Positions 37,350-60,930 of a DNA stretch of 64,000 bases are shown here, one piece after another. Origin of the DNA: a virus; IMG/VR virus record IMGVR_UViG_3300049215_000686, positions 1-64,000 of that record; one strand, written 5' to 3'. The first letter of the stretch is position 1. Every line of letters starts with the position of its first letter. The position numbers were made by a program, and so were the translations under genes. A model generated the notes under the pieces. The model worked only from the letters and a program-made list of their open reading frames with translations, was not told where the DNA came from and did not search any database.

Positions 37350-39137
37350 TTAACTTGTCGCCCGTTGGACAGCGATGTCATTGAGAACAAACTCAATTCC
37401 TTCAACCAATGTCACGGTGACTGAGGTATTAATTACGTTTCCATTGAAAGAAACCGTCAAGTCCTTGAATCCCTTGCCGCCCGTGCTTGCATCCGGAACA
37501 ATGATCCCGCTTGAGCGAGCCCCATCCAGAACACTCACCAACAGATTCTTCACAGTCTCAGGCGTAACATCGCTGTTTCGTTGACCGACGAATGTTTCCA
37601 TATTGAGACGAATCGAGAATGCCAACGTATCGGCAGCATAAAGTACGGCTGGACGATTATAAATCCACGCATTGAGGGTTTGACCGTAGGTGGAATTGTC
37701 CAATACAAACCTAAAACCACCGCCCGGAGCCCGCTCAACAAACGTCAAGTTCGCATCAATTGCGTCATCTGCCTGTGTTTCTGGATCAAAATCATTACTT
37801 GGAACGCTGAAACCAGAGATATTCGCCAATTTAAAAGTGTTGGGAAGACCAATAACCGCAGCCGCTTTCATGCCCGCATTGATTGTTGCCAGCATATGAG
37901 GCTGAGCCGTAACGAGTGCTCCAAACGAGTTTTGAACATCCACTTGTTGGAAATGGAGAGAAACTCGTGCCGAACCCAGCGCTGCGGATTTGATTTTCGC
38001 ATTCGCATAAGTCCCCTGATAAGCGGCAAATCCTTGACGCTCTCTTCGTCCTTTAACCGTCGAGTTTTGAACACAATGCGTATTAAGCGCAGCGTGAATC
38101 GAATCGATCGAATAAGAAGAAGCCGCGTCCGTAAGTCCATCGGTAATATCGCTTGCTGCGTCTCTTGAAAAAAGAGGAACAACAAAGTTCACTCGGACCT
38201 TTGAGAGAGCATCCAGACAGCCTTGAAAATTAGACTGAGAAGTTGCTCCAAGTGCACCGCCTGCCAAAGCCGTATTAACCATCGCATCAGGGATTCCGGC
38301 AGTTGCAGTCGGGATGAAGTCAACCAAAGCCGAAAGACCGAAAAAATCCACAATATCTTGAAGATCTTTCTTCACAACATAAGGAGCCGTTTTAATATCT
38401 TGGGCAGTCACGCGATCAAGGACCGTCAAAGGATCATTGATGTGACCATTCAAAACGCTCGCAACATATCCGGGCTGAGTATTTAAAAACTGAACCAATT
38501 GCCCAAGGGTGTTGAACATTGACTTAGAAATATTTAAATTCGAAGCCCCAGTTCCGGTAATCGCTGTAGTGATCGAAGTTGCCCCAATCGTAAGCGTTGC
38601 GGCTGAAACTCCGCCAGCGGTAACTTGGATTTGAATTGCTCCGTCATTTCCGATCGCGTTGGATACTTCTGAAATACCGTTCAAATTGTCCGTGATCGTA
38701 ATCACGTCTTGTCCGGCATTTTGATCAATTTCAATCGTAATAGCGTTTCCTTGCGCTCCCGGAACTTTGGCTTTCACCGTTCCATAAGAAGAAGGAAGAG
38801 CAAGACTTGCGGTTGTGGATTGATTCGTCTTTAAAGTAAGAAGAAGTTGAGCACCACCTAGGATTTGAGGGTCATTACTTGGCGTCAGAGCGATACGCGC
38901 TCCATCCACCAAGGCTCCGCTTCCATATTTTTGCTGAATTTGTGCAAACTGATCCGGAGACCAAGTCACTGAAGAAAGGCCAGATTCATCAGAAAAAGCG
39001 AGTCCCTGATCGGCCTCTCCGATGATCGCCATAACACCCAGTTGAGCCTGAGCCGCGCTGCCTTGTGCCACACGAATTCGTGAATAGGCGCCCGGTTTTC
39101 TTAGGCTCGCACCGGCGAAATTGATAACAATGCTCAT
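37350..39137 (-). CDS. Contractile tail sheath protein
   Basis: 595 aa; N-terminal F.G...RKPGAYS, AIIGEADQG; sheath C-terminal fold. Confidence 0.85.
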   Translation of the reverse strand: MSIVINFAGASLRKPGAYSRIRVAQGSAAQAQLGVMAIIGEADQGLAFSDESGLSSVTWSPDQFAQIQQKYGSGALVDGARIALTPSNDPQILGGAQLLLTLKTNQSTTASLALPSSYGTVKAKVPGAQGNAITIEIDQNAGQDVITITDNLNGISEVSNAIGNDGAIQIQVTAGGVSAATLTIGATSITTAITGTGASNLNISKSMFNTLGQLVQFLNTQPGYVASVLNGHINDPLTVLDRVTAQDIKTAPYVVKKDLQDIVDFFGLSALVDFIPTATAGIPDAMVNTALAGGALGATSQSNFQGCLDALSKVRVNFVVPLFSRDAASDITDGLTDAASSYSIDSIHAALNTHCVQNSTVKGRRERQGFAAYQGTYANAKIKSAALGSARVSLHFQQVDVQNSFGALVTAQPHMLATINAGMKAAAVIGLPNTFKLANISGFSVPSNDFDPETQADDAIDANLTFVERAPGGGFRFVLDNSTYGQTLNAWIYNRPAVLYAADTLAFSIRLNMETFVGQRNSDVTPETVKNLLVSVLDGARSSGIIVPDASTGGKGFKDLTVSFNGNVINTSVTVTLVEGIEFVLNDIAVQRATS

Positions 39138-40675: not shown

Positions 40676-41613
40676 GTGCCCGATCCCTGAGAGAAGATTT
40701 CATTAATTCGCTTCGCGAATTCATCCGTAACGTATTGCTCAACGTCTTTCATGATATGAACGCCATCAAATCCCGGATGAACCCATTTAGGCTTGTCATG
40801 AACTGCCGCAGGAACTCGGGGGTCAGTAGCCGTCCGCCAGGTTAAATAGCGGCTTTTCATGGAACCGCTGCCGGTCTCAAATTGCACCTTCGTCACCCCC
40901 GACAAAAGAGAACTGGGTTGCTTTTCGAGTTCAAGACGCTTTCGAATATCAGTTTGGAATTCTCGGTATTCCCATTGAGGTCCGCTCGGAGATTTTGTGA
41001 TACTCCAGACTTTGCCTTTAATAGGGCTTCCCGAAGAATCCAAAGAGATCTTTGTATCGTCGGGAGCAAACATTTTCTTCAAGCGCTTTAAGTCTGTAGC
41101 CAAATCCCCCTTGGTAGTTGCCCCAGGAGAGCCCCCCTGAACCACCACAGGATTCATGGGATGTCCTTTGGATGCAAAGGCTTGGACATGTTCAAAAGGG
41201 ATCTTGACGTAGCGACGGCCTGTTTTTTGAGAAAACTGCGATTTCGCGCCGCGAGCCAGGCCTGCCGCAATCATGTCAAAGCCGCTGTAGCCTTCTTCCA
41301 GGTAAACGGCGTCGTTCTCAAGCAAGATCGTCCAAATACCTTCGCCACTTTTAACTTTTTTAAGACCAGAAAGGTATTGCTGAACGGTTGAGTGCAATCG
41401 ATCGGAGGCAAGAGATTGCGCATGGTCGTAGGCATCATCCCAAACGTCTTTAACAACGCCTTGAACTGCCCCAAGATAAGGTGCGACCGCCGCCGAAGCC
41501 GCATCCGATAAGATTTTTTCCCAGCCACCGTCAGGCGAAAATTTAAATTTCACCCTCTCATTCTGATCCCACTCGGCTAGGACGTGACTTCTTTCTTTTG
41601 GCTTCTCAGCCAA
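40672..41613 (-). CDS. Neck/tail-completion protein
   Basis: RLHSTVQQYL, LEEG..GFDM, YVKIPF, TWRT, WVHPG motifs typical of large-myophage neck proteins. Confidence 0.6.
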   Translation of the reverse strand: MAEKPKERSHVLAEWDQNERVKFKFSPDGGWEKILSDAASAAVAPYLGAVQGVVKDVWDDAYDHAQSLASDRLHSTVQQYLSGLKKVKSGEGIWTILLENDAVYLEEGYSGFDMIAAGLARGAKSQFSQKTGRRYVKIPFEHVQAFASKGHPMNPVVVQGGSPGATTKGDLATDLKRLKKMFAPDDTKISLDSSGSPIKGKVWSITKSPSGPQWEYREFQTDIRKRLELEKQPSSLLSGVTKVQFETGSGSMKSRYLTWRTATDPRVPAAVHDKPKWVHPGFDGVHIMKDVEQYVTDEFAKRINEIFSQGSGT

Positions 41614-42617
41614 TCCTCATATTCTTGTTGCTGCTTTTGGGCCTCAGCAAACGACCCTTTAGGAAGGCCGTATTTAGGAATCCTTTTAGGCGCCTCAACT
41701 TGTTCACCCAGTTTGGGCTGCTCTTGAGGCTGAGAAATAACGCCCGATTCAATCAGTTTTTTCTCGGGAGTTTCATTCCCTTTTTGCTGAAGTCTTAAAT
41801 TAAGTTCTTTTTCGGTATTTTCATCCCAATAGACGACCTGATTCTTGCCCCGAAGTTTCCCGAGTTCTCGCGCCTGAATGCTTTGAGAAATAGTCTTTCC
41901 CACGCCGACAGTCACCGTTGCTCCCACTTGCTTAAAGTAGTTTTGTCTGAATTCTTCAATGTAATCAAGGGCGGCTTGTGGGACCTTCACTTGCCCTTCA
42001 TCGCCACCGGCTTCGATCACCGTTCCGCTATAGGTACCTGCCCATTGGATAAAAAGTCTCATCCCAAGATCAATCCGCTGACTGATTTCTTTTACTTTGG
42101 CTTCATCATCCGTGTATTGAGCACGAGCGACTTGATTTCCGATATTATCGCCGTCCATCGTGACATAATAAAGACCATCATTTTCCAGAACAACCTCAGC
42201 GTTTTGACGCTCAAGTTCCATGGCTTGTTGATGAGCCTGAAGTTCGGCACGCTCTTGGCGCTTTTGCTCGGCACGCTTTAAGATCTCTCTTAAAATCGTT
42301 AATGCGGGTTCAATTCTTTTTGAGACATCTTCGCCCGATATTTGCTCAGAAGCATTCGGAGTTGGAGCATTCGGCTGGGCTTCGGTGTCTTCTTTGCCAT
42401 CATCTTCTTTGGCTAAAATTTCAATTCCTTCAGATTTCACAAGCATCTTGTCAGAAAAACTTGCAAAAAGATCCGTCAACTGGGTGACATTAAGTCCAGC
42501 GGGAAGACCTTTAAGCAAAGCGTCTGGACCAATGAATTTCACTCCGCCTTCAGGGAGATCTTCCGCGCTCATAATAAACTCACCGTTTTTACGGTGAAAA
42601 ACCTTAATCTTTGCCAT
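41577..42617 (-). CDS. mCpol (minimal CRISPR polymerase)-like domain protein
   Basis: YVTMDGDNIG, VIEAGGDEG, TVTVGVG, GKLRGKNQ. Confidence 0.75.
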   Translation of the reverse strand: MAKIKVFHRKNGEFIMSAEDLPEGGVKFIGPDALLKGLPAGLNVTQLTDLFASFSDKMLVKSEGIEILAKEDDGKEDTEAQPNAPTPNASEQISGEDVSKRIEPALTILREILKRAEQKRQERAELQAHQQAMELERQNAEVVLENDGLYYVTMDGDNIGNQVARAQYTDDEAKVKEISQRIDLGMRLFIQWAGTYSGTVIEAGGDEGQVKVPQAALDYIEEFRQNYFKQVGATVTVGVGKTISQSIQARELGKLRGKNQVVYWDENTEKELNLRLQQKGNETPEKKLIESGVISQPQEQPKLGEQVEAPKRIPKYGLPKGSFAEAQKQQQEYEDWLRSQKKEVTS

Positions 42618-45315
42618 TGCCTTTAATCCTATCACGGATCTTGGCCAAAGTCTCTTTGACTTCGGTAAGCCTTCGTTTGTAAAGAATTATTCCAGCGCGT
42701 TTGGTCAAATCGTTTTTGAAATTCAAAATATCTTCTTCTTGCCACTCGCTTTTAAAAAAGATGTTGACCCCTTTTGCAGTAATCTCAATTCTGGGCTTTG
42801 GAAGATTCATATAGCAAATGCAAGCCTCAGATGAACGTTCACAGGCTTGGCATTCGGTTTCAGGATTTTCGATACCCGCTGATAATTCCATACCATGAAT
42901 CGTTTCTACGTGCTCTTTCAGTTGAGTCTGGAGTTTCTTAATTCGATCCGCAATCCCGGCAGAAGAATCGATTAATTTATTTTTGTATTCTTCAAGTTCT
43001 TTTGACTGTACTTTTGCCTCTTGATCCAGTTTTTGAGGAGTTGGATTCTCAAGCGCATCAACCAATTTTTCATGTTCCTGAACCAGTTCCTTTACTGGAA
43101 CTTCGATCGTTTCTTGTTTCTTCCCGGCCACAAGTTTCTCCTCGCTTCCGTACAGTTCCAGTTTTGATTGCAATTGACTCAACACCAACGGAAGCGTCAG
43201 TTTTTCAAATTGATGGATGATATGATTTTCATGCTCGATCCAGCCGCTATATAAATCTGCCAGTACTTTCCGGACTTTAATGGTCTTGCCAGCCAGTTCG
43301 AGGGTTGCTGTATCGTCTTTTTTAAGCGGAACAAGATGTTCTTTGCCCCAGTCCAAAAGTTCGGGCGCTACTGAGGCCATTGCCTGATCATGAGACTTAG
43401 GATCAGTCAGGGTTTCGCCGTCTCCTTGAGTGAAAGCCTTTTTCACCGAATCTTCTTGTTGGTCCTCATAGACAACCGTGGTTTTCCCGGCGTGGCCATG
43501 AACTAACAGACAATCATGAATCGAAGGATAAAACGCAAGCGATCCCCAACGAGTCAGCCAATTCATCCCGACCCAACCATTAGAAAAAATAACGCCCTCA
43601 GCCACTCGGCCAGTTCCACTTACTCCTGATTCATCTTGTTCGCGCCAAAGATAGAATTTCTTAATCTTGCCGCCTTCTTTAAGTTCTCCAGACAACCTTT
43701 CTGATTTTGAGATCCCTGAAAATTGCTCTTTAACGTCTTTAGGCACGCCCGTAGTCCTGAAAGTGGCCTCTTCGTGCTCTAATCCGCTCTTTTTTGCATG
43801 CTCATCAATCATCCCAAGAGCATGCTCCAAAGAAATCTTCTCTGAAGAAGGAACGAATCCTTCATCGCTCGGTTCAGTGAATTGACCCGTTAATGCGCGA
43901 TGCACGGCGTCATGCATAACTGTATTCAATTCCCGGTGAAAGTCTTCATCCGAGATCTTATGTCCTAATTTTTCAGAAATTTCTCGCTGTTTATGAGCAG
44001 CCAGCCACTCCCAATGCACCGCCCGCTTGGCTTCACGAGGAGACCGAACTCCCATTTTTCCCAGTCTTCGGCCTTCTCCGTATAAGTTGTTCACTTCCGG
44101 GTAAGTCAGCGCATGCGAAAGTTCATGGACTTTTCTCCAAGAACGTGTGAACGCCTCATTTTGAAAATCTCCGCCACTTCCCGGAGAAGGATCCCAAATC
44201 ATTAAATGTTTGGTGTTGTAGTTCTTGGCTTTTAGATCAGGCCGGCCATATTTGCCGCCCGCAAAGTAAGTTTTATAGCCATGCTCAGCGATCATGTGAT
44301 CAATTGCTGGCTCATGACGTTCAATCCCACCATAAAAGTTAAGATTACTTTTATGATTAGGTAAAATATGACCATAACGTTCAGCGATAGGCCGATACGA
44401 TGCCACGCCCTTTCCGGCGGCTTGAGCATTGTCAGAATGAGGTTCTTTAATAGGCTCTGGGCGAGGAGAACCGCGAGTACTTTGCGTAAAAGACTCGGCC
44501 TTTTCAATATTTTCAGCATCATCAGAATAAAATTCGGTATGCCCGTCGTGCCAATCATAGGCATGCGGATGAGCCGCGCCAGGAGCGTTTTCTCTCAGCA
44601 TCGAAGGAGGATGCCCGTGAATCACAACCGCAGGCTCTCCATTTTCTTGGGCTAGTGAAATCGTATCTTCGAGTTTTTCATCATCCGGATCTTTTACATG
44701 AACGCCCGGTAAATGATCATGAGATTCATGCATTGCATGAAATATATTGATGCCAAGAACCGATCCATAATGATGAGGATTATGGATTTCTTTTGTTTCT
44801 TTTTTCTTCTCATGAAATAGCAAATCAAACGGCTTTTCATCGGCCTTTTTGACCTCAGGCTCTTCGACATTCAGCCTAAATCGATGGCCAGACGGAAGTT
44901 GCGTATAAAACTCTTTTAAATGCGGTCCATGAGAAAAACCTTCACCGGTCCAAGAGGGCCTGCCATCTTGGAAAACGAGTTCGCTTTTATTTTCAGAATG
45001 ATGAAGAACGGCCTCTTGGCCATATTGCCATCCTATATTTTCGATCGCTTTTCGATGCTCTGGAATCCCTTCATGGGCTACCAAATAGGATTCTTCCGGA
45101 TGGCTATAATGACCCTTAACGGGAGTTGCCTCGAATCCGGCTTGTTTTAAGTCTTGAGCCAAAGAGGAATGAGCATTCGCATTGTGTTCAGGACTGTTTT
45201 GCGCAGAAACAAGAGAAAAATGCTTGGGGAGCCCAGGGAATGAAAAATGATCCGGATATGACGGATCATGCAGCGGATGAGTACTCGGAAGGGCTGGATT
45301 TATTTTCTCTGCCAT
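42604..45315 (-). CDS. Modular putative head protein: SAM-lyase-like, HEXXH zincin and SGVSGTG/HGH domains
   Basis: Motif-level alignment to T3 SAMase; HELSH..E; domains separated by phi-x-K-[S/A] linkers. Confidence 0.7.
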   Translation of the reverse strand: MAEKINPALPSTHPLHDPSYPDHFSFPGLPKHFSLVSAQNSPEHNANAHSSLAQDLKQAGFEATPVKGHYSHPEESYLVAHEGIPEHRKAIENIGWQYGQEAVLHHSENKSELVFQDGRPSWTGEGFSHGPHLKEFYTQLPSGHRFRLNVEEPEVKKADEKPFDLLFHEKKKETKEIHNPHHYGSVLGINIFHAMHESHDHLPGVHVKDPDDEKLEDTISLAQENGEPAVVIHGHPPSMLRENAPGAAHPHAYDWHDGHTEFYSDDAENIEKAESFTQSTRGSPRPEPIKEPHSDNAQAAGKGVASYRPIAERYGHILPNHKSNLNFYGGIERHEPAIDHMIAEHGYKTYFAGGKYGRPDLKAKNYNTKHLMIWDPSPGSGGDFQNEAFTRSWRKVHELSHALTYPEVNNLYGEGRRLGKMGVRSPREAKRAVHWEWLAAHKQREISEKLGHKISDEDFHRELNTVMHDAVHRALTGQFTEPSDEGFVPSSEKISLEHALGMIDEHAKKSGLEHEEATFRTTGVPKDVKEQFSGISKSERLSGELKEGGKIKKFYLWREQDESGVSGTGRVAEGVIFSNGWVGMNWLTRWGSLAFYPSIHDCLLVHGHAGKTTVVYEDQQEDSVKKAFTQGDGETLTDPKSHDQAMASVAPELLDWGKEHLVPLKKDDTATLELAGKTIKVRKVLADLYSGWIEHENHIIHQFEKLTLPLVLSQLQSKLELYGSEEKLVAGKKQETIEVPVKELVQEHEKLVDALENPTPQKLDQEAKVQSKELEEYKNKLIDSSAGIADRIKKLQTQLKEHVETIHGMELSAGIENPETECQACERSSEACICYMNLPKPRIEITAKGVNIFFKSEWQEEDILNFKNDLTKRAGIILYKRRLTEVKETLAKIRDRIKGNGKD

Positions 45316-45361: not shown

Positions 45362-45889
45362 TCACTTTTCAAGCGATAAGAACCAGGCAGTAGGGTAGTC
45401 TTTGCCCCGTTTAATCCATTTTGCGACTGTTTTTGGCTTTCTTAAACGAGTCGTCCCTTGGTCGGGAGAATAATGGTCATTAATACAAATCCATGAGCCC
45501 CGAGAGGTCCCGGCAATAAAACAAAAATGATCTCCGATTTGGCCGCTTTCTCGCCAACGGTAAGAAAGAGCCACCGCTCCGCCAGATTTCAAATGTGCCC
45601 GGATTTGCGCCAGAGTAGGATGTTTTTTACGCCTGACCTTAAAATTACCCTTACCGACATAGCGTAAAACGCGATCAAAATCCTGGTCCGTGGTTCCATT
45701 GGCATCAAAATCATCGGGGAATTCGGGATCAATCGTTCGACAAGAAAATTGAAGAAAAGGAAGATGGTTACGACTCGATGCATCAATTCCGGACCACTTC
45801 ATTGCGTTCAAGATTGCCGTGGGTCCGCACGAGAACGAGTCAACTTGTTGACAATATCTCGGCATACTTCCACCGAAAACCTTAAACAA
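45362..45889 (-). CDS. C39-like (papain-fold) cysteine peptidase
   Basis: QQVDSFSCGPTA, DHF, IND catalytic triad. Confidence 0.75.
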   Translation of the reverse strand: MFKVFGGSMPRYCQQVDSFSCGPTAILNAMKWSGIDASSRNHLPFLQFSCRTIDPEFPDDFDANGTTDQDFDRVLRYVGKGNFKVRRKKHPTLAQIRAHLKSGGAVALSYRWRESGQIGDHFCFIAGTSRGSWICINDHYSPDQGTTRLRKPKTVAKWIKRGKDYPTAWFLSLEK

Positions 45890-52017: not shown

Positions 52018-52842
52018 TTAAATGGGATTATCCCAAAGCGAAGGAGTTTTGGGTCTCGGCGGGATATAGATACGTTTTTTAGGAACAATCGGAGTTACGC
52101 CCTCAGGCCAAACCTCGATAGGAGTTCTTGATTTGACTTCAGTGCAAACCAAAGGAGCCTTATCGCTACAGCCGCAACCTGCATCTAAAAACAAATAATG
52201 CTGATAATAACGAGGAGTAAAAAGCCCCGCTTGCAATCGATGGATATGCCCACAAACTCCCACCAACTTATTGCCGTCTTTATCTTTATGATGCCGAGAC
52301 TTGCCTCGCTCATCTTGAATGTAGGTCCAAACCAGTTCACAAGGCTCTAATGGCCGATTTCTTAAATGAGGAGCGCGATCTTTATCTTTGGGGCAAGGAG
52401 CATGGCTAAAAAAGAATCCTTGCTCTTCATGAAATAGCCGTAAAGAGTCCATCCAATCTAGGTAATCATCCGGAATGGGGTTTTGTTTGCCAGGATTGGG
52501 GTCTTGCTCGCCTACAGAAAAACTGGCAAGCGTCTTATGCCCACCATTAGCAGGATGTGTCCAAAGCGAAAAATCATACCACCTTCCACGACGCAATGCG
52601 TTTAAACACAAAACTTCATGGTTTCCCTTAAGAACCACAACGGCGTGAGGATAGTCTCTTTCAAGAGCGCGAATCGTATCTAAAACGCCTTTAGAATCCG
52701 AGCCTCGGTCAATCATATCGCCCATAAAAATGAGTCGATCGGTCGCAAAATCAAGCAAATGCTCGTCTTTTAATTTCTTAAGGAGAGGCTGAAAAAGATC
52801 ATTTCGGCCATGGATATCGGGAATTGCGAAGATACGGAACAT
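52018..52842 (-). CDS. PPP-family Ser/Thr metallophosphatase
   Basis: DIHG, GDMIDRG, GNHE, HA, GH. Confidence 0.88.
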   Translation of the reverse strand: MFRIFAIPDIHGRNDLFQPLLKKLKDEHLLDFATDRLIFMGDMIDRGSDSKGVLDTIRALERDYPHAVVVLKGNHEVLCLNALRRGRWYDFSLWTHPANGGHKTLASFSVGEQDPNPGKQNPIPDDYLDWMDSLRLFHEEQGFFFSHAPCPKDKDRAPHLRNRPLEPCELVWTYIQDERGKSRHHKDKDGNKLVGVCGHIHRLQAGLFTPRYYQHYLFLDAGCGCSDKAPLVCTEVKSRTPIEVWPEGVTPIVPKKRIYIPPRPKTPSLWDNPI

Positions 52843-52870
52843 ATTCCCATTATACCGATGATTCGATCTT

Positions 52871-53227
52871 TTAAACAAGATCTGCGTTGTAAGCAAAAAT
52901 CCCGGCGGCGCTCCCTCGAACCCAAGCCTTGGCTCCGCTATTCAATACAAACTTCTCACCCGCAGCAATCGGGATTCCGTCAGTAGCGCCTGTTGGTGCG
53001 CTCATCGATTGGTCACCAAATGCGACAAAAAGAACACCGCCGGTAGAATTATAGAGCATGACCGGAGTATTTTCACCCACTCGAACCGCATTTGTAAGAT
53101 CTCCCTTGGGAGTCCAGTCCAAACCAGCCTGAGCCACCCGAATTACCGCAGATAAATCGGCAAAAATAGCCTGAAGAATGGTTCCAATATTGGTTATATT
53201 TTTAACGGGTTTTGTTCCAACGCTCAT
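52871..53227 (-). CDS. Small structural protein
   Basis: Start MSVGTK after RBS GGAG; YN....LFVAFG..DGIPI pattern. Confidence 0.55.
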   Translation of the reverse strand: MSVGTKPVKNITNIGTILQAIFADLSAVIRVAQAGLDWTPKGDLTNAVRVGENTPVMLYNSTGGVLFVAFGDQSMSAPTGATDGIPIAAGEKFVLNSGAKAWVRGSAAGIFAYNADLV

Positions 53228-54651: not shown

Positions 54652-57600
54652 CTATGAGCCGACTCGGATTGCCATCAAACTTCTTCCAACAATAGTAGAA
54701 GTTCCCGTACTCGTGTTCCATTGAGCCGTAATGACATTTGATCCGTTAACCGTAATAACCGCAGTGGATCGACAACCCAAATTTAGGTTATTTTGAGTTT
54801 TAAAGATCCTAATTGAATCAGAAATCTGGCTGGCATCAGAATAAATACTAAATGTAGTTAGTGCGTTATTCACAGAATTTGAAAAAACGCCCTCAAAAAA
54901 GACCACATAAGTTCCAGCAACAGGAGTCACGGTCATTGAAGCAATGGCAGAATTAGATGCAGATGATGTCGTTGCTGAACTCGTGGATGCGGCCTTATTG
55001 TTCGATATCACCGTATTGTGAACATGATCCGATCGTGCAAACGATGCAGCCGATCCTTGATCATTGGCTATCCCCGTGTCATTAACCGTCGCCGTCGGCA
55101 CATTGTGAACGTGTCCAGCATCCGCGTATTTATTGGTTGATCCTGCGGAAGCCGAAAGATCTGGAGTCAAATTATGGATATCGGAAGATGATCCAAACAT
55201 CAAATTGACATTTAAGAGGGTTCTATTATCAGAAAGAGCCGTAATCGCAGCACCATTGCTAGAAAAAATCGCTAATGGAACGGCGTTCGGAGGTGTGCTC
55301 GTTGATGTGGTTGATTTAATTACCCCATCTACGTCAACATAAATCCTTCCGTTTGTCGCACCGGTTACGACCGTAATCGATCCAGCCGAGATGCTAATAG
55401 TCGTTCCATTAATTCTTGCTTTTCCAGCGGTGTAATTGGCAACTAATCCTGCACCCTGGCTGACCAGCAATTCATTGGGACCAATTGTCGTATCGACAGT
55501 AAAATTTCCCGATCCATCATCGGTAACGGTAGTGCCTTTCCCTGGATCAATCGATAAGTCTCCAAACCGCTGAGTTCCGCCCGTTCCAGCCTTTAATGAG
55601 TGAACACCTTTATGAACATGATCGGATTTAGCGAGGGTCGTCGCTACACCTTGTGAATTTGCTGAGCCAATATCGGTAGGCGCTGCGGTTGGAATATTGT
55701 GAACATGATCCGCTCTTGCAAAATTGGCACTGGTTCCTGCGTTATTGGATTGGTCAGCGTTTTGGGTAGAAACAACACCCGATGAAATCGCGTGAGTATG
55801 ATCTGACCGAGCAAAAGAGGCTGCCGAACCTTGTGTATTCGTAGAATTTGCATTAAGGCCACCCGCTGCCGCTGTAGGGATGTTATGGACATGATCGGCT
55901 CTTGCGAAATTTATCGAAGATCCATCCGCATTCAGTTGATCCGGGGTTTGAGTCGCCGCCGCCGCAGTCGAAAATGTGTGGAGATGATCAGAGCGAGAAA
56001 AAGATGCCGCAACCCCATCTGATGAAGAAGCAGCGATGGTCTGATTTGCCGGGACTGCGGTAGGGACATTGTGGATATGGTCTTGTTGAGCAAAGGCGGC
56101 AGCCGAGCCTTGACTATTTCCGGCATTCGGAGTCAAAGCACTCGGAGCCCCAGTAGGAATATTGTGAACATGATCGGCTTTAGCGAAATTAATGCTCGCT
56201 CCCGCCGCGTTTGTTTGATTGGGAGTCTGAGTCGAAGGGACACCTGAAGCGATAGCATGAGTGTGGTCAGCCCGAGCAAACGAAGTCGAGGCTCCTTGCG
56301 TATTTGTGCTTGCTGAATTCAGCCCCACAGCAGCCGCCGTAGGCACGTTATGAATGTGGTCAGCCCGAGCCAAACTGGTTGAAGTTCCTGGAGCATTTGC
56401 TTGATCTGGATTTAATGTAACCGCTGCCGCTGTCGGAATTTCATCGGCTCCTCCGGGCTGATGCCTAGCGTGATGATTTTCAACGACAACGCCATTCGCT
56501 GTTCCTAGATTGGTAATATTGTGGGTACCGAGATTAAAATCTCCCGTTGCCACATGAGTTCCGTCATTTCTCCAATATTGCGGATGATCGTCACCGACCG
56601 TCAATCCAAGAAGATTCCGATGAAATGAAGCCGCCGATACCGAACTTGGAGCCGATCCTACTCGTGGTCGCTCATCGCGAATTTCGATGATATTGGTCAT
56701 TCCCTGTTGAACGATCAAGGAAGCGATAGGGACTACACCGTCAAGAAAGTAAGGAGGAGGCGTGGGTCTTGGGCCTTGCTCAGCCAGAGTTAAGGCAGTG
56801 TATTGGACTTGAGAATAAACCAACAAATATTTTTCATTAATTCCTTCGCCGACCAAATAGAGGACATGCTTTGCAAAATTGCCGGCGCCAATGGGAGCAA
56901 GAGTTCCTGTCCCATTATCAAAAAAAGCATTATCTACAACATTTTGTGAAACTTGAGAAAAACCGCCAGTTCCATTTTGATAATAAGCGGTCCATGAAAC
57001 CGCAGTAGCACCAGACGGCATAAACCGATTGGTCGCAAGATAATAAGTACCGGGAGTAACGTCTAACTGCCTTGTACCGTTTTCAGTAACAATAGATCCG
57101 GAAGAAAAAACACCCCCAATTGCGTTTCTGAATAAATCGTCATATCGATTTGAAGAATGTTCCGCATCTATACCGGAACTATCAATGAATTCTATCCCAG
57201 TCGAATTGGTTACAACCCGGCCCAAAAGAATAACAAGATGAGTGTCCGGGAAGGTCGAAGTAGTCGTTAATGCCCCGGTATTATCAAAAATAAGATAAAG
57301 AGCCTGATTGGGAGGAAGCGTAATTGAAATATCCCCCCAAAAGAATTGTCTGAAAATCTCGGGCTCAATCTCTAAATATCCAAATCCTGCCGAAATATTA
57401 ACGGTGAATCCTGACCCCGAAGTCAGTTCTCCTCCGTCCATCACGCCCATGGTGGCAGATTCCGTCCCTAATAGGGTGATATCAATGACATCTGCAATGT
57501 TTTTGGCGTAAAGAACTCTTCCGGTAATTACAATATCTCCGGTCTGTTCATCCAAAAACGCCATTTTTACATCGGTGGCAGAAGAGATCACCGAGATTTT

Positions 57601-58704
57601 GCTTCGGTTGGCGACTCCCTCAAAAGAAACAAAAGCATTAGGGTTATCAATCAAAACATCCCAGTTAATGGAACTTTCGATATGAACCGCGTCACAATCC
57701 AGTTCAGTTCCCGCAGCCGTTCCATCCATATGAATTCCTGTTCCGAATCCACGAATGAAAACGCTCAAAACTCGGCAGTGAGCCCCGTCACTGACCCTGA
57801 TACATTCGATCGAGTTTGCCGCCTCTACACGAAATTGCCCAGAATTTAATAAAATCTCAGAATTGGGACCAGTCGCCCAAAACAAATAATCTGGATAAGG
57901 CGCCTGAAGGGCTGTCGTCGTGCCAGAACGCATGACGATAGACGCTCGGAAAGTATTAGTGTTTCTAGCCAAAAAACCGTGATTAAATGAATAAACAGAT
58001 CCAAACCGACAATCAAACAAGAAAAGATTCGAGTTTCCTAAGAGGCCATCAGCGATAGCCAGCGTATCATTGCTTCCAAATCGAATTTGCTCAACCCAAA
58101 ACGCGGCCTGTGTACTTGCAAATGTGCTTTGATAAAAAATAGCAGCAAAAGAAGGTCCGGTAGCGCCTTCCAAAAGGCACTTACTGATCCCAGAGAAATC
58201 AGCCCCAGTAATCAAATGAGCATTCGGGTTAGCCGCCTGAATAATCGTCTGCTCCGGACCAGAACCCTCAACCCAAACATAGGATTTCATTTGAATGGGT
58301 TGTTCAACAAAAACTCCCGGACCCACTGAAATCAAATAAGGATTGGAAGGAGAGTTTCCTGTAATGCTCACCAAAGCATCGTTAATGGTCGCAAAATCTT
58401 GTGAATTTAAAACGGGGTTCTTAACGACCCTCAGAACCTTAGCGACCGGCGCTTGACCATTTCCAACAACCGTCCATTGACCAGAAGAATATTGCTCAAG
58501 GCGTCCGTCGTCCAGATTGTAAACCAAAAGCCCTTCGCTTGGAGTTGAGATCGCATCTCTTTGCGCGGTCGTCATTCTGGGGGCTAAAAACCCTTGCGAA
58601 GTGCTTTGAAGATTAAAAATTGCGGAAGGATCGTTAGAAGAACCGCCGATTCCAACGCCAGGCTTTGTATTGGGAGAAATTTCGTTGACAGTAATTTTAC
58701 TCAT
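54652..58704 (-). CDS. Tail fibre / receptor-binding protein
   Basis: GFLAPRMTTAQRDAI..GLLVYN module, pectin-lyase-like beta-helix start (TINDAL..VGPGVF), DDHPQY, HxH repeats. Confidence 0.8.
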   Translation of the reverse strand: MSKITVNEISPNTKPGVGIGGSSNDPSAIFNLQSTSQGFLAPRMTTAQRDAISTPSEGLLVYNLDDGRLEQYSSGQWTVVGNGQAPVAKVLRVVKNPVLNSQDFATINDALVSITGNSPSNPYLISVGPGVFVEQPIQMKSYVWVEGSGPEQTIIQAANPNAHLITGADFSGISKCLLEGATGPSFAAIFYQSTFASTQAAFWVEQIRFGSNDTLAIADGLLGNSNLFLFDCRFGSVYSFNHGFLARNTNTFRASIVMRSGTTTALQAPYPDYLFWATGPNSEILLNSGQFRVEAANSIECIRVSDGAHCRVLSVFIRGFGTGIHMDGTAAGTELDCDAVHIESSINWDVLIDNPNAFVSFEGVANRSKISVISSATDVKMAFLDEQTGDIVITGRVLYAKNIADVIDITLLGTESATMGVMDGGELTSGSGFTVNISAGFGYLEIEPEIFRQFFWGDISITLPPNQALYLIFDNTGALTTTSTFPDTHLVILLGRVVTNSTGIEFIDSSGIDAEHSSNRYDDLFRNAIGGVFSSGSIVTENGTRQLDVTPGTYYLATNRFMPSGATAVSWTAYYQNGTGGFSQVSQNVVDNAFFDNGTGTLAPIGAGNFAKHVLYLVGEGINEKYLLVYSQVQYTALTLAEQGPRPTPPPYFLDGVVPIASLIVQQGMTNIIEIRDERPRVGSAPSSVSAASFHRNLLGLTVGDDHPQYWRNDGTHVATGDFNLGTHNITNLGTANGVVVENHHARHQPGGADEIPTAAAVTLNPDQANAPGTSTSLARADHIHNVPTAAAVGLNSASTNTQGASTSFARADHTHAIASGVPSTQTPNQTNAAGASINFAKADHVHNIPTGAPSALTPNAGNSQGSAAAFAQQDHIHNVPTAVPANQTIAASSSDGVAASFSRSDHLHTFSTAAAATQTPDQLNADGSSINFARADHVHNIPTAAAGGLNANSTNTQGSAASFARSDHTHAISSGVVSTQNADQSNNAGTSANFARADHVHNIPTAAPTDIGSANSQGVATTLAKSDHVHKGVHSLKAGTGGTQRFGDLSIDPGKGTTVTDDGSGNFTVDTTIGPNELLVSQGAGLVANYTAGKARINGTTISISAGSITVVTGATNGRIYVDVDGVIKSTTSTSTPPNAVPLAIFSSNGAAITALSDNRTLLNVNLMFGSSSDIHNLTPDLSASAGSTNKYADAGHVHNVPTATVNDTGIANDQGSAASFARSDHVHNTVISNNKAASTSSATTSSASNSAIASMTVTPVAGTYVVFFEGVFSNSVNNALTTFSIYSDASQISDSIRIFKTQNNLNLGCRSTAVITVNGSNVITAQWNTSTGTSTIVGRSLMAIRVGS
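55610..56390 (-). repeat. Nine ~31-aa repeats FARADHxH within the fibre
   Basis: Counted in the translation; two more copies near 55020-55120. Confidence 0.85.
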
Positions 58705-59722: not shown

Positions 59723-60676
59723 TCAGCTGGAGGGATTTCCCGGCAGTATCATGACCGGCTGAAGACCCAGTTTTTGTAGCTGCTTCCGTTCAGCCAGTTT
59801 CTCAAACTCCTCCGGGCTGAAATAGCCCAGAGAAGAGTGGATGCGTTTCTCGTTATACACAGACTCAATGAATCGAGGAACAGCTTTCAGCACGTCCTCG
59901 AGCGTTTCGTACTCCGTCAGGTACACCTCCTCAGCTTTCAGGGTTTTGAAGAACGTCTCCGCGAAGGCGTTGTCGTAGCAGTAGCCCTTGGCGGACATGC
60001 TGGGCACGATCCCGCACTCGGCCAGTCGGCCCTTGTAGGCGTCGCACGCGTACTGGACTCCGCGGTCCGAGTGATGGATCAGTCCGGATGCGGGTTTCCG
60101 CCTCTGGATGGCGATGTTCAGCGCCTCCAGGCAGAGCTCCGTATCGATCTTCGCTGAGATCGCCCAGCCGACGACCCGACGAGAGAACAGATCCAGGATC
60201 GTCGCCAGGTAGACGAAGCCCGAGAGAATCCGGATGTAGGTGATATCCGCCACCCACACCTGGTTAATCCCGGTGATTCGTCTGCCTGGCAGAAGATTCT
60301 TGGCATAGCCGAAATTATGGTCGGGGTCGGTCGTCTTGATCTTCCAACCACGCCAAATCAGGGCTTTTAGGCCGTATTTCTTCATGATCCTGAGAATCCG
60401 TTTCTCGTTGATCGTGATGCCGCGCTTGCGTTCGAGCCATTCGTGGAGTCGCCGGTACCCGTAGAACGGGAACTCCCGTTGGGTCTCCTCGATCAGATCC
60501 CGAACGTCAGCGTCCGCCTGCGCTCGCTCTACCGGGTCCCTCTTGGGCCTGTAGTAGTAGCTGGAGGGGGCAAGGCCAACGGTTTTGCAGGCTTCTGATA
60601 CTGAGCCAAGTTCCGTGACGTGTAGATCAACGAATCTTCGCTTTTGAGCCGCTGTTTGAAGGCCTCCACTTTTTTT
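59723..60676 (-). CDS. IS3 OrfB DDE integrase domain (reached by -1 frameshift)
   Basis: YGYRR, WVADITY, HSDRGVQY, DNAFAETFF, YNEKRIHSSLG. Confidence 0.9.
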   Translation of the reverse strand, partial: KKSGGLQTAAQKRRFVDLHVTELGSVSEACKTVGLAPSSYYYRPKRDPVERAQADADVRDLIEETQREFPFYGYRRLHEWLERKRGITINEKRILRIMKKYGLKALIWRGWKIKTTDPDHNFGYAKNLLPGRRITGINQVWVADITYIRILSGFVYLATILDLFSRRVVGWAISAKIDTELCLEALNIAIQRRKPASGLIHHSDRGVQYACDAYKGRLAECGIVPSMSAKGYCYDNAFAETFFKTLKAEEVYLTEYETLEDVLKAVPRFIESVYNEKRIHSSLGYFSPEEFEKLAERKQLQKLGLQPVMILPGNPSS

Positions 60677-60930
60677 AGGAGGTCGATGGTCATCGTCAGC
60701 TCGCCGATCTTGGACTTGAGCTTCTCGTTTTCGCGCTCCAGTTCTTTCTCCCGGTCGCCGGCCTTGGGACTCAGAGTCCCCGCCGTATAACGCTGGATCC
60801 ACCCCTCGACCACCGTCCGCTGGAGCTGGTTCTCGCGGCAGATCCCTGCCACGTCCTGGATTCCCGCCTCGATTCGCTGGCAGACCTGGATCTTGAAACT
60901 TACGTCGAACTTTCTTCGGATCTTTCCCAT
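60529..60930 (-). CDS. IS3 OrfA (HTH)
   Basis: RRKFDVSFK..W..LERENEKLK. Confidence 0.85.
   Translation of the reverse strand: MGKIRRKFDVSFKIQVCQRIEAGIQDVAGICRENQLQRTVVEGWIQRYTAGTLSPKAGDREKELERENEKLKSKIGELTMTIDLLKKVEAFKQRLKSEDSLIYTSRNLAQYQKPAKPLALPPPATTTGPRGTR

Follow-up and report, generated by a model that had tools for sequence, protein, structure and literature searches.

The locus described here lies among the tail genes of an uncultured, 157-kb phage, within a window of 64,000 nucleotides. Two overlapping genes on the minus strand, P0001 and P0002, are surrounded by tail-tube-like genes and sit upstream of the sheath gene in a tight late string (Table 1). An earlier note on this DNA had singled out the two genes for their enzyme-like domains, and the open reading frames, Pfam searches and fold matches bear this out. 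It had also assigned them to a head/neck gene block. The block is in fact a tail/neck one, the head module being about 30 kb away in this phage, and it is only in distant relatives that the family gene is found in the head module, where the prohead protease gene flanks it on one side and the scaffold and capsid genes on the other. The P0002 reading frame spans 41577-42635 when counted from a GTG, but the called gene begins at an ATG at 42617, giving an overlap of 14 nucleotides with the 3' end of P0001. The same order and overlap are present in two related contigs, L002 and that of P0013, and P0002 is read as translationally coupled to P0001.

Table 1. Features of the P0001/P0002 locus, in window coordinates. 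Arrows mark the bond at which cleavage would take place.
Feature	Position	Strand	Description
Tail sheath gene	37350..39137	minus	phrog_279, E 2.4e-37; downstream of P0001/P0002, one gene string
P0002	41577..42617	minus	346 aa; mCpol-domain protein; called gene from ATG at 42617
mCpol (minimal Cas10-palm) cyclase domain	41832..42167	minus	Pfam PF18182
P0002 L-V-K↓S (K67 from GTG)	42432..42443	minus	candidate site; would remove ~60-aa N-terminal module
P0001	42604..45315	minus	ORF, 903 aa; five confidently folded domains, four disordered linkers
P0001 domain 5 (residues 637-903)	42607..43407	minus	beta module, long coiled coil, Cys4, terminal helix
Joint 4, V-K-K↓A (K626)	43435..43446	minus	candidate cleavage site; linker 620-636
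P0001 domain 4 (residues 550-619)	43459..43668	minus	Acb5-family anti-CBASS nuclease domain
Joint 3, I-S-K↓S (K537)	43702..43713	minus	candidate cleavage site; linker 531-549
P0001 domain 3 (residues 295-530, 236 aa)	43726..44433	minus	family-defining HExxH core
H-E-L-S-H motif (residues 397-401)	44113..44127	minus	inside helix 387-412
Joint 2, I-E-K↓A (K272)	44497..44508	minus	candidate cleavage site just upstream of core
P0001 domain 2 (residues 159-255)	44551..44841	minus	His-rich alpha/beta; pLDDT ~90-97
Joint 1, V-K-K↓A (K157)	44842..44853	minus	candidate cleavage site; linker 156-158
P0001 domain 1 (residues 14-155)	44851..45276	minus	T3-type SAM lyase fold
Upstream neighbour	45362..45889	minus	175 aa, ending 46 nt short of P0001; candidate cysteine peptidase, C39-like

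The AlphaFold2 model of P0001 has a mean pLDDT of 82, falling below 50 in the linkers at residues 156-158, 256-294, 531-549 and 620-636. In these models the segments take enzyme folds rather than structural ones. Domain 1 is modelled as a T3 SAM lyase fold that retains the substrate-binding residues, and the corresponding activity is predicted. Its best Foldseek match is the T3 SAM lyase (8bb1_E, E 2.2e-4), to which it aligns with a VIA Z of 13.5 and an rmsd of 2.5 Å over 119 residues, the next unrelated entries lying at around Z 7. The Pfam scores are close to threshold, with 27.6 bits (E 3.1e-6) for S-AdoMet_lyase against a cut-off of 28, and 26.4 bits for DUF3293 against a cut-off of 25. 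In the alignment to T3 SAMase, G67-x-Y69 corresponds to G55-x-Y57 and E74-E75 to E67-E68, and Q100 is conserved as well; functions are assigned to these residues after PMC7877911. In about 5 of 14 orthologues the Tyr of the G-x-Y motif has been lost or deleted, and what the domain conserves may therefore be something other than SAM cleavage. Domain 2 has the invariant residues H193, H196, H206, H251, Y253, D254 and W255, and nothing usable came out of an Atlas search with it (TM below 0.5).

Domain 3 defines a family of modular phage proteins, comprising 324 clusters among 1.84 billion representatives and ranging from 185 to 2933 residues in length; among the cultured phages of the phage collection, none has it. 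The HExxH residues H397, E398 and H401 are invariant across 119 relatives, as are W393, R394, R417, E428, R431, W435, E436, Q443 and R444. Folded alone, the domain reaches a pLDDT of 95.3. It is probably a zincin-like metallohydrolase: matches in BFVD are weak but fall mostly among zincins and polyvalent proteins, while comparison with the PDB gave no significant fold match (top entry ArdC, 6sna_A, Z 4.7) and no Pfam model matched, the polyvalent metallopeptidase model included. The regions around this core are exchanged among relatives, as the earlier note had proposed checking, with GGDEF, GNAT, NUDIX, topoisomerase IB and PI3/PI4-kinase-like domains swapped in.

Domain 4, with its SGVSGTG and HGH motifs, had been left unnamed, and it can now be placed in the published anti-CBASS family Acb5. 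It matches phrog_7499 (E 3.5e-24) and is labelled PF26761, Acb5, in precomputed Pfam. Matches by tblastn are small standalone proteins from viruses of Streptomyces, Bacillus, Mycobacterium and Haloarcula, the same host spread as that reported for Acb5. An Arg, a Trp 28 residues further on and the H-G-H are invariant, and their spacing fits that of R10, W38 and H61 in the tested Acb5A to within about 1-3 residues. The domain thus carries the residues needed for cGAMP cleavage, and that activity is predicted from sequence. Domain 5 is restricted to around 23 close relatives and has an invariant Cys4 cluster (C822, C825, C832 and C834). An Atlas search found no usable match for it, and it may be the part that anchors the protein in the virion.

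P0002 is, by its sequence, a true mCpol with a predicted cyclase activity. Its Pfam PF18182 score is 43.1 bits (E 6.4e-11) against a cut-off of 26.4, and a profile of 26 relatives matches the Panoptes protein OptS (9mnr_A, E 1e-7) along the whole length of OptS. The DGDxIG and GGDEG motifs are intact and invariant among relatives. Elsewhere mCpol forms fusions with SAM-lyase and NUDIX modules, and Lys motifs occur where the parts meet. The earlier claim that the two genes are coupled is therefore upheld by gene order, overlap and these fusions; it does not extend to a functional dependence on Acb5, since mCpol also follows orthologues that have no Acb5.

The linkers of P0001 were said to carry hydrophobic-x-Lys-small motifs, and this holds for four of the five sites; every motif that the earlier note listed for the two proteins is present in the sequence. 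There is one motif in each interdomain linker, and conservation was counted over 14 full-length orthologues of P0001. K157 and K626 are invariant and the motifs around them are found in all 14; the joint 2 motif is present in 11, with K272 at least 90% conserved in 119 family members, and that of joint 3 in all 10 orthologues that have the region. Flank identity around the four joints is 12-44% (0.17 at joint 1 and 0.12 at joint 2). The raw number of motifs is not significant, with 5 seen against 3.05 expected (P = 0.18), but four of the five fall in low-pLDDT linkers, which account for 12% of the protein (P of about 0.001). The remaining one, FFKS (K855), falls on a beta strand within a folded domain; cleavage there is improbable. 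Across the family, a motif occurs within 45 residues upstream of the core in 59 of 87 members (27% background) and within 70 residues past it in 67 of 87 (38% background); in P0028, K417 and K694 lie at the exact edges of a core spanning 419-688. Thirteen relatives conserve the P0002 site as L-[VIA]-K with S, A or D next and a variable acidic linker after it, and LLKG in the same protein is conserved more loosely.

The same motif, with Ala, Ser or Thr as the small residue, recurs in the head proteins. The genome encodes a prohead serine protease, whose tail has x-L-x-K↓S-E in 4 of 4 phages compared. In four related phages the capsid N-arm carries E-E-L-x-K↓T, and in two distant ones L-I/V-K↓A. 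Several copies occur in the scaffold, whose N-terminal site is not conserved in 2 of 4 relatives. When a PSSM was built from the P0001 and P0002 sites only, the scaffold, the protease and the portal C-terminus were among the top non-self matches. LVK↓S of P0002, itself one of the sites building the matrix, scored 14.3, and differing P1' and P2' residues gave the capsid site a low score. The literature searched offered no cleavage specificity for this family of prohead proteases.

On balance, and with moderate confidence, we take P0001 to be a polyvalent protein that the head protease cleaves and the virion carries, with packaging, cutting and activities all predicted. According to this proposal, several unrelated counter-defence enzymes are translated as a single late polypeptide, and the prohead serine protease would cleave after the linker lysines within the prohead to free the SAM lyase, Acb5, the HExxH enzyme and mCpol in trimmed form. 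Characterised relatives of the SAM lyase and Acb5 act as oligomers, the SAM lyase Svi3-3 being a trimer and Acb5 a predicted homotetramer. The virion would retain the freed pieces and pass them into the next host alongside the DNA, and so they would act ahead of any phage transcription. There the cargo would lower SAM, as used by type I R-M and BREX, or SAM-AMP, and would destroy CBASS dinucleotides, while mCpol would make a cyclic oligoadenylate. The placement of the linker motifs and their recurrence in head proteins speak for this proposal, as do the late gene string, the head-module position of the gene in distant relatives and the exchange of domains. PMC8406200 describes T3 SAMase as the earliest protein produced on infection, and the homologues of Acb5 are small and stand alone, so a late, fused copy is sensible chiefly as something taken along to the next cell. 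Precedents exist in the polyvalent-protein concept (PMC5512222) and in the ejection proteins of SPN3US, which are cut by the prohead protease (PMC10052503). Counting against packaged cargo are the distance of some 30 kb from the head module, the shortness of the motif and its non-significant number in P0001, the exceptions at the scaffold N-terminal site and in the capsid score, the loss of the SAM-lyase Tyr in some orthologues and the unmatched fold of domain 3. The observations of the earlier note are confirmed, and its interpretation is partly supported, with each point open to in silico checking turning out as it predicted.

The enzymes may instead be made late and act unpackaged in the producing cell, for example by blunting late abortive-infection signalling until lysis. 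Genes outside the head module would suit such a role, and nucleotide-signal defences are able to fire late in infection. However, this leaves unexplained why the conserved Lys joints are common to head proteins, why the gene of distant relatives lies between the protease and scaffold/capsid genes and why oligomer-acting enzymes should be fused into a single chain, and we consider it unlikely, if the least so of the alternatives. It is also quite unlikely that the protein is cargo but is cut, before packaging or after entry, by its own HExxH domain or by the upstream C39-like peptidase. Autoprocessing by the zincin domains of polyvalent proteins was proposed by Iyer et al. (PMC5512222), and both the invariant HExxH residues and the family-wide flanking of the core by Lys motifs are in keeping with it. 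The neighbouring gene likewise has an intact set of Q15, C21 (in S-C-G-P-T-A), H121 and D138, conserved in the L002 orthologue; its match to Peptidase_C39_2 is below cut-off (E 0.011) but covers positions 5-141 of 143, and a gene of 163-165 residues occupies the same position in both related contigs examined. Against this, the capsid N-arm, scaffold and protease tail that conserve the motif are classical prohead-protease substrates, and distant family members keep the Lys joints with no C39-like motif fused or adjacent. Characterised C39 peptidases, moreover, cleave after Gly-Gly.

Two further readings concern what the proteins do. The mCpol enzymes characterised so far come from bacterial defence systems and the catalytic motifs of P0002 are intact, so that mCpol and a partner could provide phage-borne signalling, as superinfection exclusion or a Panoptes-like guard, rather than counter-defence cargo. 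We regard this as very unlikely: P0002 is translationally coupled to a polyvalent protein, mCpol is joined to SAM-lyase and NUDIX domains elsewhere, and searches beside P0002 and across the genome turned up no transmembrane, Cap15-type, SAVED or CARF effector, a weak negative in that the controls for two families were silent. That these are ordinary neck or tail structural proteins with inactive, enzyme-like relics would agree with the tube-like and sheath neighbours and with the loss of the SAM-lyase Tyr in some orthologues. It is also very unlikely, given the invariant catalytic residues of the HExxH, Acb5 and mCpol domains, the lack of any structural fold match and the free swapping of accessory domains, which structural parts seldom tolerate.

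Packaged, protease-cut cargo thus remains our preferred reading, and its components can be compared with known systems. P0002 shares its domain family and catalytic acidic motifs with Panoptes OptS/mCpol (9mnr, 9nwn; PMC12657218, PMC12657230), but is phage-encoded, is longer by about 150 residues at the N-terminus and 80 at the C-terminus, shows GGDEG where OptS has AADG, and has no 2TM-beta or CARF-TM effector that could be found; phage-encoded mCpol is not mentioned in the Panoptes literature searched. Acb5 nucleases, first described in 2025 (bioRxiv 10.1101/2025.07.12.664507), share the sequence family and the Arg, Trp and His required for activity. Those described are small standalone proteins, predicted homotetramers and mostly from actinophages, whereas here the module lies between two Lys joints of a large myophage polyprotein. 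The T3 SAM lyase (gp0.3; 8bb1, 7ock) and Svi3-3 (6zm9) resemble domain 1 in fold and in the G-x-Y, E-E and Q residues; T3 SAMase, however, is a small free protein with about 21% identity to what in P0001 is the N-terminal module of a late protein.

The polyvalent proteins that Iyer, Burroughs, Anand, de Souza and Aravind described in 2017 from phages and conjugative elements (PMC5512222) similarly combine unrelated enzyme domains in a single polypeptide, vary in architecture among homologues, include a zincin-type HExxH module and are predicted to be delivered with DNA, and cyclic-nucleotide synthase (GGDEF) modules occur in both families. The P0001 core differs in lying outside the Pfam polyvalent metallopeptidase model without a significant fold match, and its joints are a defined Lys motif common to head proteins; DUF3293 and mCpol are not mentioned in PMC5512222. 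T4 Alt (PMC5512222), together with the ejection proteins of SPN3US (PMC10052503) and of phiKZ, are likewise products of late genes with short motifs shared with capsid and scaffold. Such head-packaged proteins are enzymes or anti-restriction factors delivered alongside the DNA, with packaging proven for them and predicted for P0001. The T4 internal proteins IPI-III and the P1 Dar proteins belong to the same group. The motifs of these systems end in Glu, as in the L/I-x-E of T4 and the A-x-E of phiKZ-type phages, whereas that of P0001 ends in Lys. In contrast to the cargo of T4, P1, SPN3US and phiKZ, the predicted cargo of P0001 strings together enzymes acting on nucleotide signals and on SAM.

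P0001, a 903-residue multidomain protein, is predicted by AlphaFold2, run with 89 relatives, to consist of five well-folded blocks (mean pLDDT 82). The segments that separate these domains, residues 156-158, 256-294, 531-549 and 620-636, are all modelled at a pLDDT below 50, and residues 724-741, within the last block, are also modelled with low confidence. When the whole protein, a 14-sequence profile or domain 1 alone was searched by sequence against the PDB, nothing useful was returned. The earlier note had described the enzyme-like parts of the protein as SAM-lyase-like, as an HEXXH zincin and as an unnamed SGVSGTG/HGH domain.

Domain 1 carries both the fold and the substrate-binding residues of a T3-type SAM lyase. 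In VIA searches its model matches 8bb1_E (Z 13.5, rmsd 2.5 Å, 119 of 147 residues) and 7ock_J (Z 12.9), against Z values of no more than 7 for unrelated ferredoxin-like rows, and Foldseek also finds 8bb1_E (E 2.2e-4). The domain is thus modelled with the GlnB-like alpha/beta sandwich fold of the T3 SAMase. Its Pfam scores are borderline, at 27.6 bits for S-AdoMet_lyase (cut-off 28) and 26.4 bits for DUF3293 (cut-off 25). In a plain three-sequence alignment that included the T3 SAMase, G67-H-Y69, E74-E75 and Q100 fall opposite T3 G55-C-Y57, E67-E68 and the Gln of E-Q-D; the known substrate-binding residues are G56, Y58, E69 and Q104 in Svi3-3 and E67 and E68 in T3 (PMC7877911). About 5 of the 14 orthologues have lost the Tyr of the G-x-Y motif or have a deletion there. 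Phage SAM-lyase relatives are reported to accept SAM-AMP as well (PMC12255297), so the substrate of domain 1 may be either SAM or SAM-AMP.

Domain 4 is a member of the Acb5 family, matching phrog_7499 at E 3.5e-24, bearing the precomputed Pfam label PF26761 and sharing 39-49% identity with homologues in Samisti12, Tsamsa and SH1. The Acb5 proteins are recently described phage enzymes that cleave 3'3'-cGAMP and thereby block CBASS, and they are found as small proteins of Streptomyces, Mycobacterium, Bacillus and Haloarcula viruses (bioRxiv 10.1101/2025.07.12.664507); tblastn matches to domain 4 have the same host spread as that published. Mutation of R10, W38 or H61 abolishes the activity of Acb5A (bioRxiv 10.1101/2025.07.12.664507). 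The domain 4 alignment holds an invariant Arg, a Trp 28 residues further on and H-G-H another 20-22 residues beyond. By spacing, Acb5A itself lying outside the alignment, the Arg-Trp distance equals that of Acb5A exactly and the Trp-His distance agrees to within about 1-3 residues.

The central domain 3, the core of the family, is predicted at pLDDT 95 when modelled alone, and the residues of its H397-E-x-x-H401 motif, along with nine others, are invariant in 119 relatives. The HExxH domain has no Pfam match and no match to a solved fold, the best being the ArdC antirestriction protein at Z 4.7 in an exhaustive VIA search (best Foldseek match in the PDB, E 0.41). The ArdC family bears a C-terminal metallopeptidase domain (PMC5512222), and weak matches in the viral library BFVD are mostly zincins of the IrrE, SprT and M48 types together with annotated polyvalent proteins. 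We read domain 3 as a candidate hydrolase, divergent and zincin-like. Domains 2 and 5 returned only matches with TM below 0.5 or short matches in Atlas searches, and domain 5 is restricted to close orthologues. Domain 2 ends, just before the joint at K272, in a His/Trp-rich stretch, H-P-H-x-Y-D-W-H-D-G-H-T (residues 245-262, in the region of window positions 44551-44560). Throughout the 119-member family this motif is conserved to at least 90%, and it possibly has a docking or metal-binding role.

Features of the gene pair, of P0001 and of the head module
Feature	Position	Strand	Description
P0001	42604-45315	-	903 aa
P0002	41577-42635 from GTG; called gene from ATG at 42617 in public data	-	
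Domain 1 of P0001	residues 14-155		T3-type SAM lyase (Pfam PF23780 / DUF3293 PF11697)
Domain 2 of P0001	residues 159-255		His-rich alpha/beta, confidently predicted
Domain 3 of P0001	residues 295-530		HExxH core, H397-E-x-x-H401
Domain 4 of P0001	residues 550-619		Acb5; the SGVSGTG/HGH domain of the earlier note
Domain 5 of P0001	residues 637-903		beta module, long coiled coil, invariant Cys4 cluster, terminal helix
Tail sheath gene	37350-39137		downstream of P0001/P0002, same tight gene string; phrog_279, E 2.4e-37
Major capsid protein	75.4-76.9 kb of genome		
Scaffold	77.0-77.7 kb of genome		
Prohead protease	78.2-78.9 kb of genome (78191-78925)		
Portal	82.0-84.0 kb of genome		
Terminase	85.6-87.4 kb of genome		

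Of 1.84 billion clusters at 50% identity, 324 contain the core, 303 of them at E 1e-10 or better, and all 150 matches listed are at least 46% identical. The proteins that bear it range from 185 to 2933 residues and hold it at any position between the N- and C-terminal ends, with SAM-lyase domains occurring at either end. As the earlier note had suggested should be checked, relatives do swap domains: the partners of the core include GGDEF, two kinds of GNAT, NUDIX, topoisomerase IB (Topoisom_I), a PI3/PI4-kinase-like domain (PI3_PI4_kinase) and DUF6943. In the phage collection, searched at both nucleotide and protein level, no cultured relative with the core or with the mCpol domain of P0002 was found; the only matches were to the Acb5 domain.

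The record, from an uncultured virus, comprises 157,131 bp, is estimated to be 96% complete and has the window as its first 64 kb. SPO1-like Bacillus phages and Myxococcus phage Mx1 have capsid proteins with about 30% identity to the one encoded here. The ATG of P0002 precedes the stop of P0001 by 14 nt, so the two genes are probably translationally coupled, and their order and overlap are repeated in two related contigs. Upstream of P0001, virion proteins are encoded, among them two with a weak resemblance to tail tube. The pair had been assigned to a head/neck block, but the head module is located apart from P0001, at 75-87 kb of the genome, so the block is a neck/tail one. Promoters and terminators predicted across 36-50 kb were no more numerous than in shuffled sequence.

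A 175-residue gene 46 nt upstream of P0001 (45362-45889, minus strand) has every residue of a C39/papain-like catalytic set, namely Q15, C21 (in S-C-G-P-T-A), H121 and D138; its Pfam match is weak (E 0.011) yet full-length, a gene of the same size occupies this position in two related contigs, and its product may be the block's third enzyme or an alternative protease for processing. A NinI-like Ser/Thr phosphatase of the metallophosphoesterase type (52018-52896, minus strand; phrog_246, E 2.7e-33) sits amid virion genes, is conserved in the same position in the related contig L002, and may be another non-structural enzyme of the late block. Further upstream in the same gene string is a 1350-residue late protein without any Pfam or PHROG match (54652-58704, minus strand). 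An IS200/IS605-type transposase-like gene (59723-60802, minus strand; phrog_157, E 4.8e-96) lies within the late gene string in a stretch of G+C 0.50, against 0.44-0.46. Apart from this stretch, G+C is high in the window only at 10-12 kb (0.53), where an 889-residue reading frame without a PHROG match (9323-11992, minus strand) adjoins baseplate-like genes.

The linkers of P0001 had been proposed to carry hydrophobic-x-Lys cleavage motifs. As a raw count this is unremarkable, five hydrophobic-x-K-[AST] matches being present where 3.05 would be expected (P = 0.18), and the FFKS match at K855, part of a beta strand within a conserved domain, is probably no cleavage site. It is the position and conservation of the other four that support the proposal. 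K157, K272, K537 and K626 fall one to each interdomain linker, so that four of the five matches are in linkers making up 12% of the residues (P about 0.001), and they are kept in 14/14, 11/14, 10/10 and 14/14 orthologues, respectively, where flanking identity is 12-44%. The P2' residue is usually Asp or Glu. Among 87 wider family members, 68% have the motif within 45 residues ahead of the core (background 27%) and 77% have it no more than 70 residues beyond the core (background 38%); in one relative, P0028, motifs stand exactly at the edges of the core. For P0002, 13 relatives retain L-V/I-K with S, A or D as the next residue, ahead of a variable acidic linker.

The same motif recurs in the head proteins. 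In six phages it is found some 13-28 residues from the N-terminus of the capsid protein, as E-E-L-x-K and then T in four related phages and as L-I/V-K and then A in two distant ones. The prohead protease has it in its C-terminal tail (4/4), and the scaffold at several positions. A site scoring matrix built from the P0001 and P0002 sites only, when run against the 201-protein proteome, placed scaffold, protease and the portal C-terminus among its top matches. From these sequence patterns we infer that the sites in P0001, P0002 and the head proteins would be real protease cut sites; the literature searched held nothing usable on the specificity of Herelleviridae-type prohead proteases.

The central domain of P0002, seen earlier as mCpol-like, is a true mCpol. 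It scores 43.1 bits against Pfam mCpol (PF18182; cut-off 26.4), a profile built from 26 relatives aligns at E 1e-7 with residues 9-129 of the 131 in the Panoptes synthase OptS (9mnr_A), and the palm motifs D-G-D-x-I-G and G-G-D-E-G are invariant in those 26 relatives. The known Panoptes system pairs mCpol with a 2TM-beta (OptE) or CARF-TM effector. Here, the neighbours of P0002 have no hydrophobic segment; Cap15-type, SAVED and CARF domains gave no match anywhere in the genome, and the flanking genes are virion genes. With no membrane or CARF/SAVED-type effector adjacent or in the genome, P0002 is not part of a Panoptes operon. Its close homologues (42-51% identity) are fused to NUDIX and SAM-lyase/DUF3293 domains in single proteins, and gene order here together with gene fusion elsewhere places the cyclase in the same module pool. 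Three such fusions (P0261, P0265 and P0266; 810-907 residues) have lysine motifs right after mCpol. The last 40 or so residues of P0002 (41577-41700) form, after a variable linker, a conserved tail, P-K-Y-G...Q-Q-E-Y-E-x-W-L-x-S-Q-K-K-E, which is kept in about 10 orthologues and is a candidate docking peptide.

The fused GGDEF domains of relatives did not prove on comparison to be close homologues of this mCpol, which implies parallel acquisitions of a cyclase. A strict tie between mCpol and Acb5 was considered and rejected, since the mCpol gene still follows the Acb5-less orthologues P0012 and P0013. It is conceivable, if unlikely, that this phage's mCpol counters Panoptes-type guards by supplying the host's decoy cyclic oligoadenylate (2'3'-c-di-AMP or cA3), virion-preloaded or made beside Acb5, such that the guard's membrane toxin stays off while phage enzymes destroy CBASS signals. 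The Panoptes paper predicted a phage 'anti-anti-anti-defence' but did not find one, and the Panoptes literature searched makes no mention of a phage mCpol or anti-Panoptes factor.

The best-supported reading of these sequences is that P0001 is a polyvalent protein sensu Iyer et al. 2017 (PMC5512222) whose pieces, once cut at the lysine joints by the prohead protease, would travel in the virion. Such release would free the SAM lyase and Acb5 to form the oligomers seen or predicted for characterized relatives. One main rival is processing by the protein's own HExxH domain, with its invariant motif, or by the C39-like peptidase of the neighbouring upstream gene; against this stands the recurrence of the joint motif in capsid protein, scaffold and protease. 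As a general processing enzyme the C39-like neighbour was rejected, being absent from distant members that retain the lysine joints.

The other main rival is that the P0001 enzymes act late in the cytoplasm without packaging. Here the gene stands outside the head module. On L003 and L013, contigs of distant family members, the core gene directly follows a 1200-residue protein starting with a prohead-protease domain and precedes the scaffold and capsid genes, which is the classical place for head cargo. That large protein (L003:6395-9997; L013:3842-7498), with the protease domain as its N-terminus, looks from its sequence like a protease-cargo fusion; in L003 the domain is followed by a stretch mimicking a capsid N-arm (A-G-G-Y-N-A-A-P...G-A-A-L-Q).

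Were the pieces of P0001 indeed carried in the virion, SAM-dependent restriction, BREX and CBASS would be countered from time zero, before phage transcription, by a delivery route not yet shown for nucleotide-signal enzymes. The analysis also gives a testable cut-site rule: hydrophobic-x-Lys, then Ala, Ser or Thr. The compact HExxH domain, with its 324 clusters, marks a large pool of swappable phage effector modules and so offers a practical route to new anti-defence enzymes. Finally, intact mCpol cyclases are documented in phages and tied by gene order and fusion to anti-defence modules, which makes a phage answer to Panoptes directly testable.

In several respects, P0001 mirrors the polyvalent proteins of Iyer et al. 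2017 (PMC5512222), which hold at least two domains of disparate activity in one phage or plasmid chain, as P0001 does with its SAM lyase, HExxH and Acb5 domains, and which recombine their domains in variable architectures, as the core family does. Their zincin-like metallopeptidase module may have a counterpart here in the HExxH domain, which lacks a Pfam match and approaches ArdC only at Z 4.7. T3-type SAM lyases convert SAM to MTA and homoserine lactone as oligomers. Characterized Acb5 is predicted to be a homotetramer, whereas here the domain sits inside a 903-residue chain, and a domain 4 tetramer would probably need release at K537 and K626. In T4, capsid protein, scaffold and ejected proteins all carry one and the same protease motif. 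The motif shared here by capsid protein, scaffold and cargo is distributed likewise, and SPN3US/phiKZ provides a second parallel, with a single protease motif marking its capsid protein, scaffold and ejected proteins (PMC10052503).
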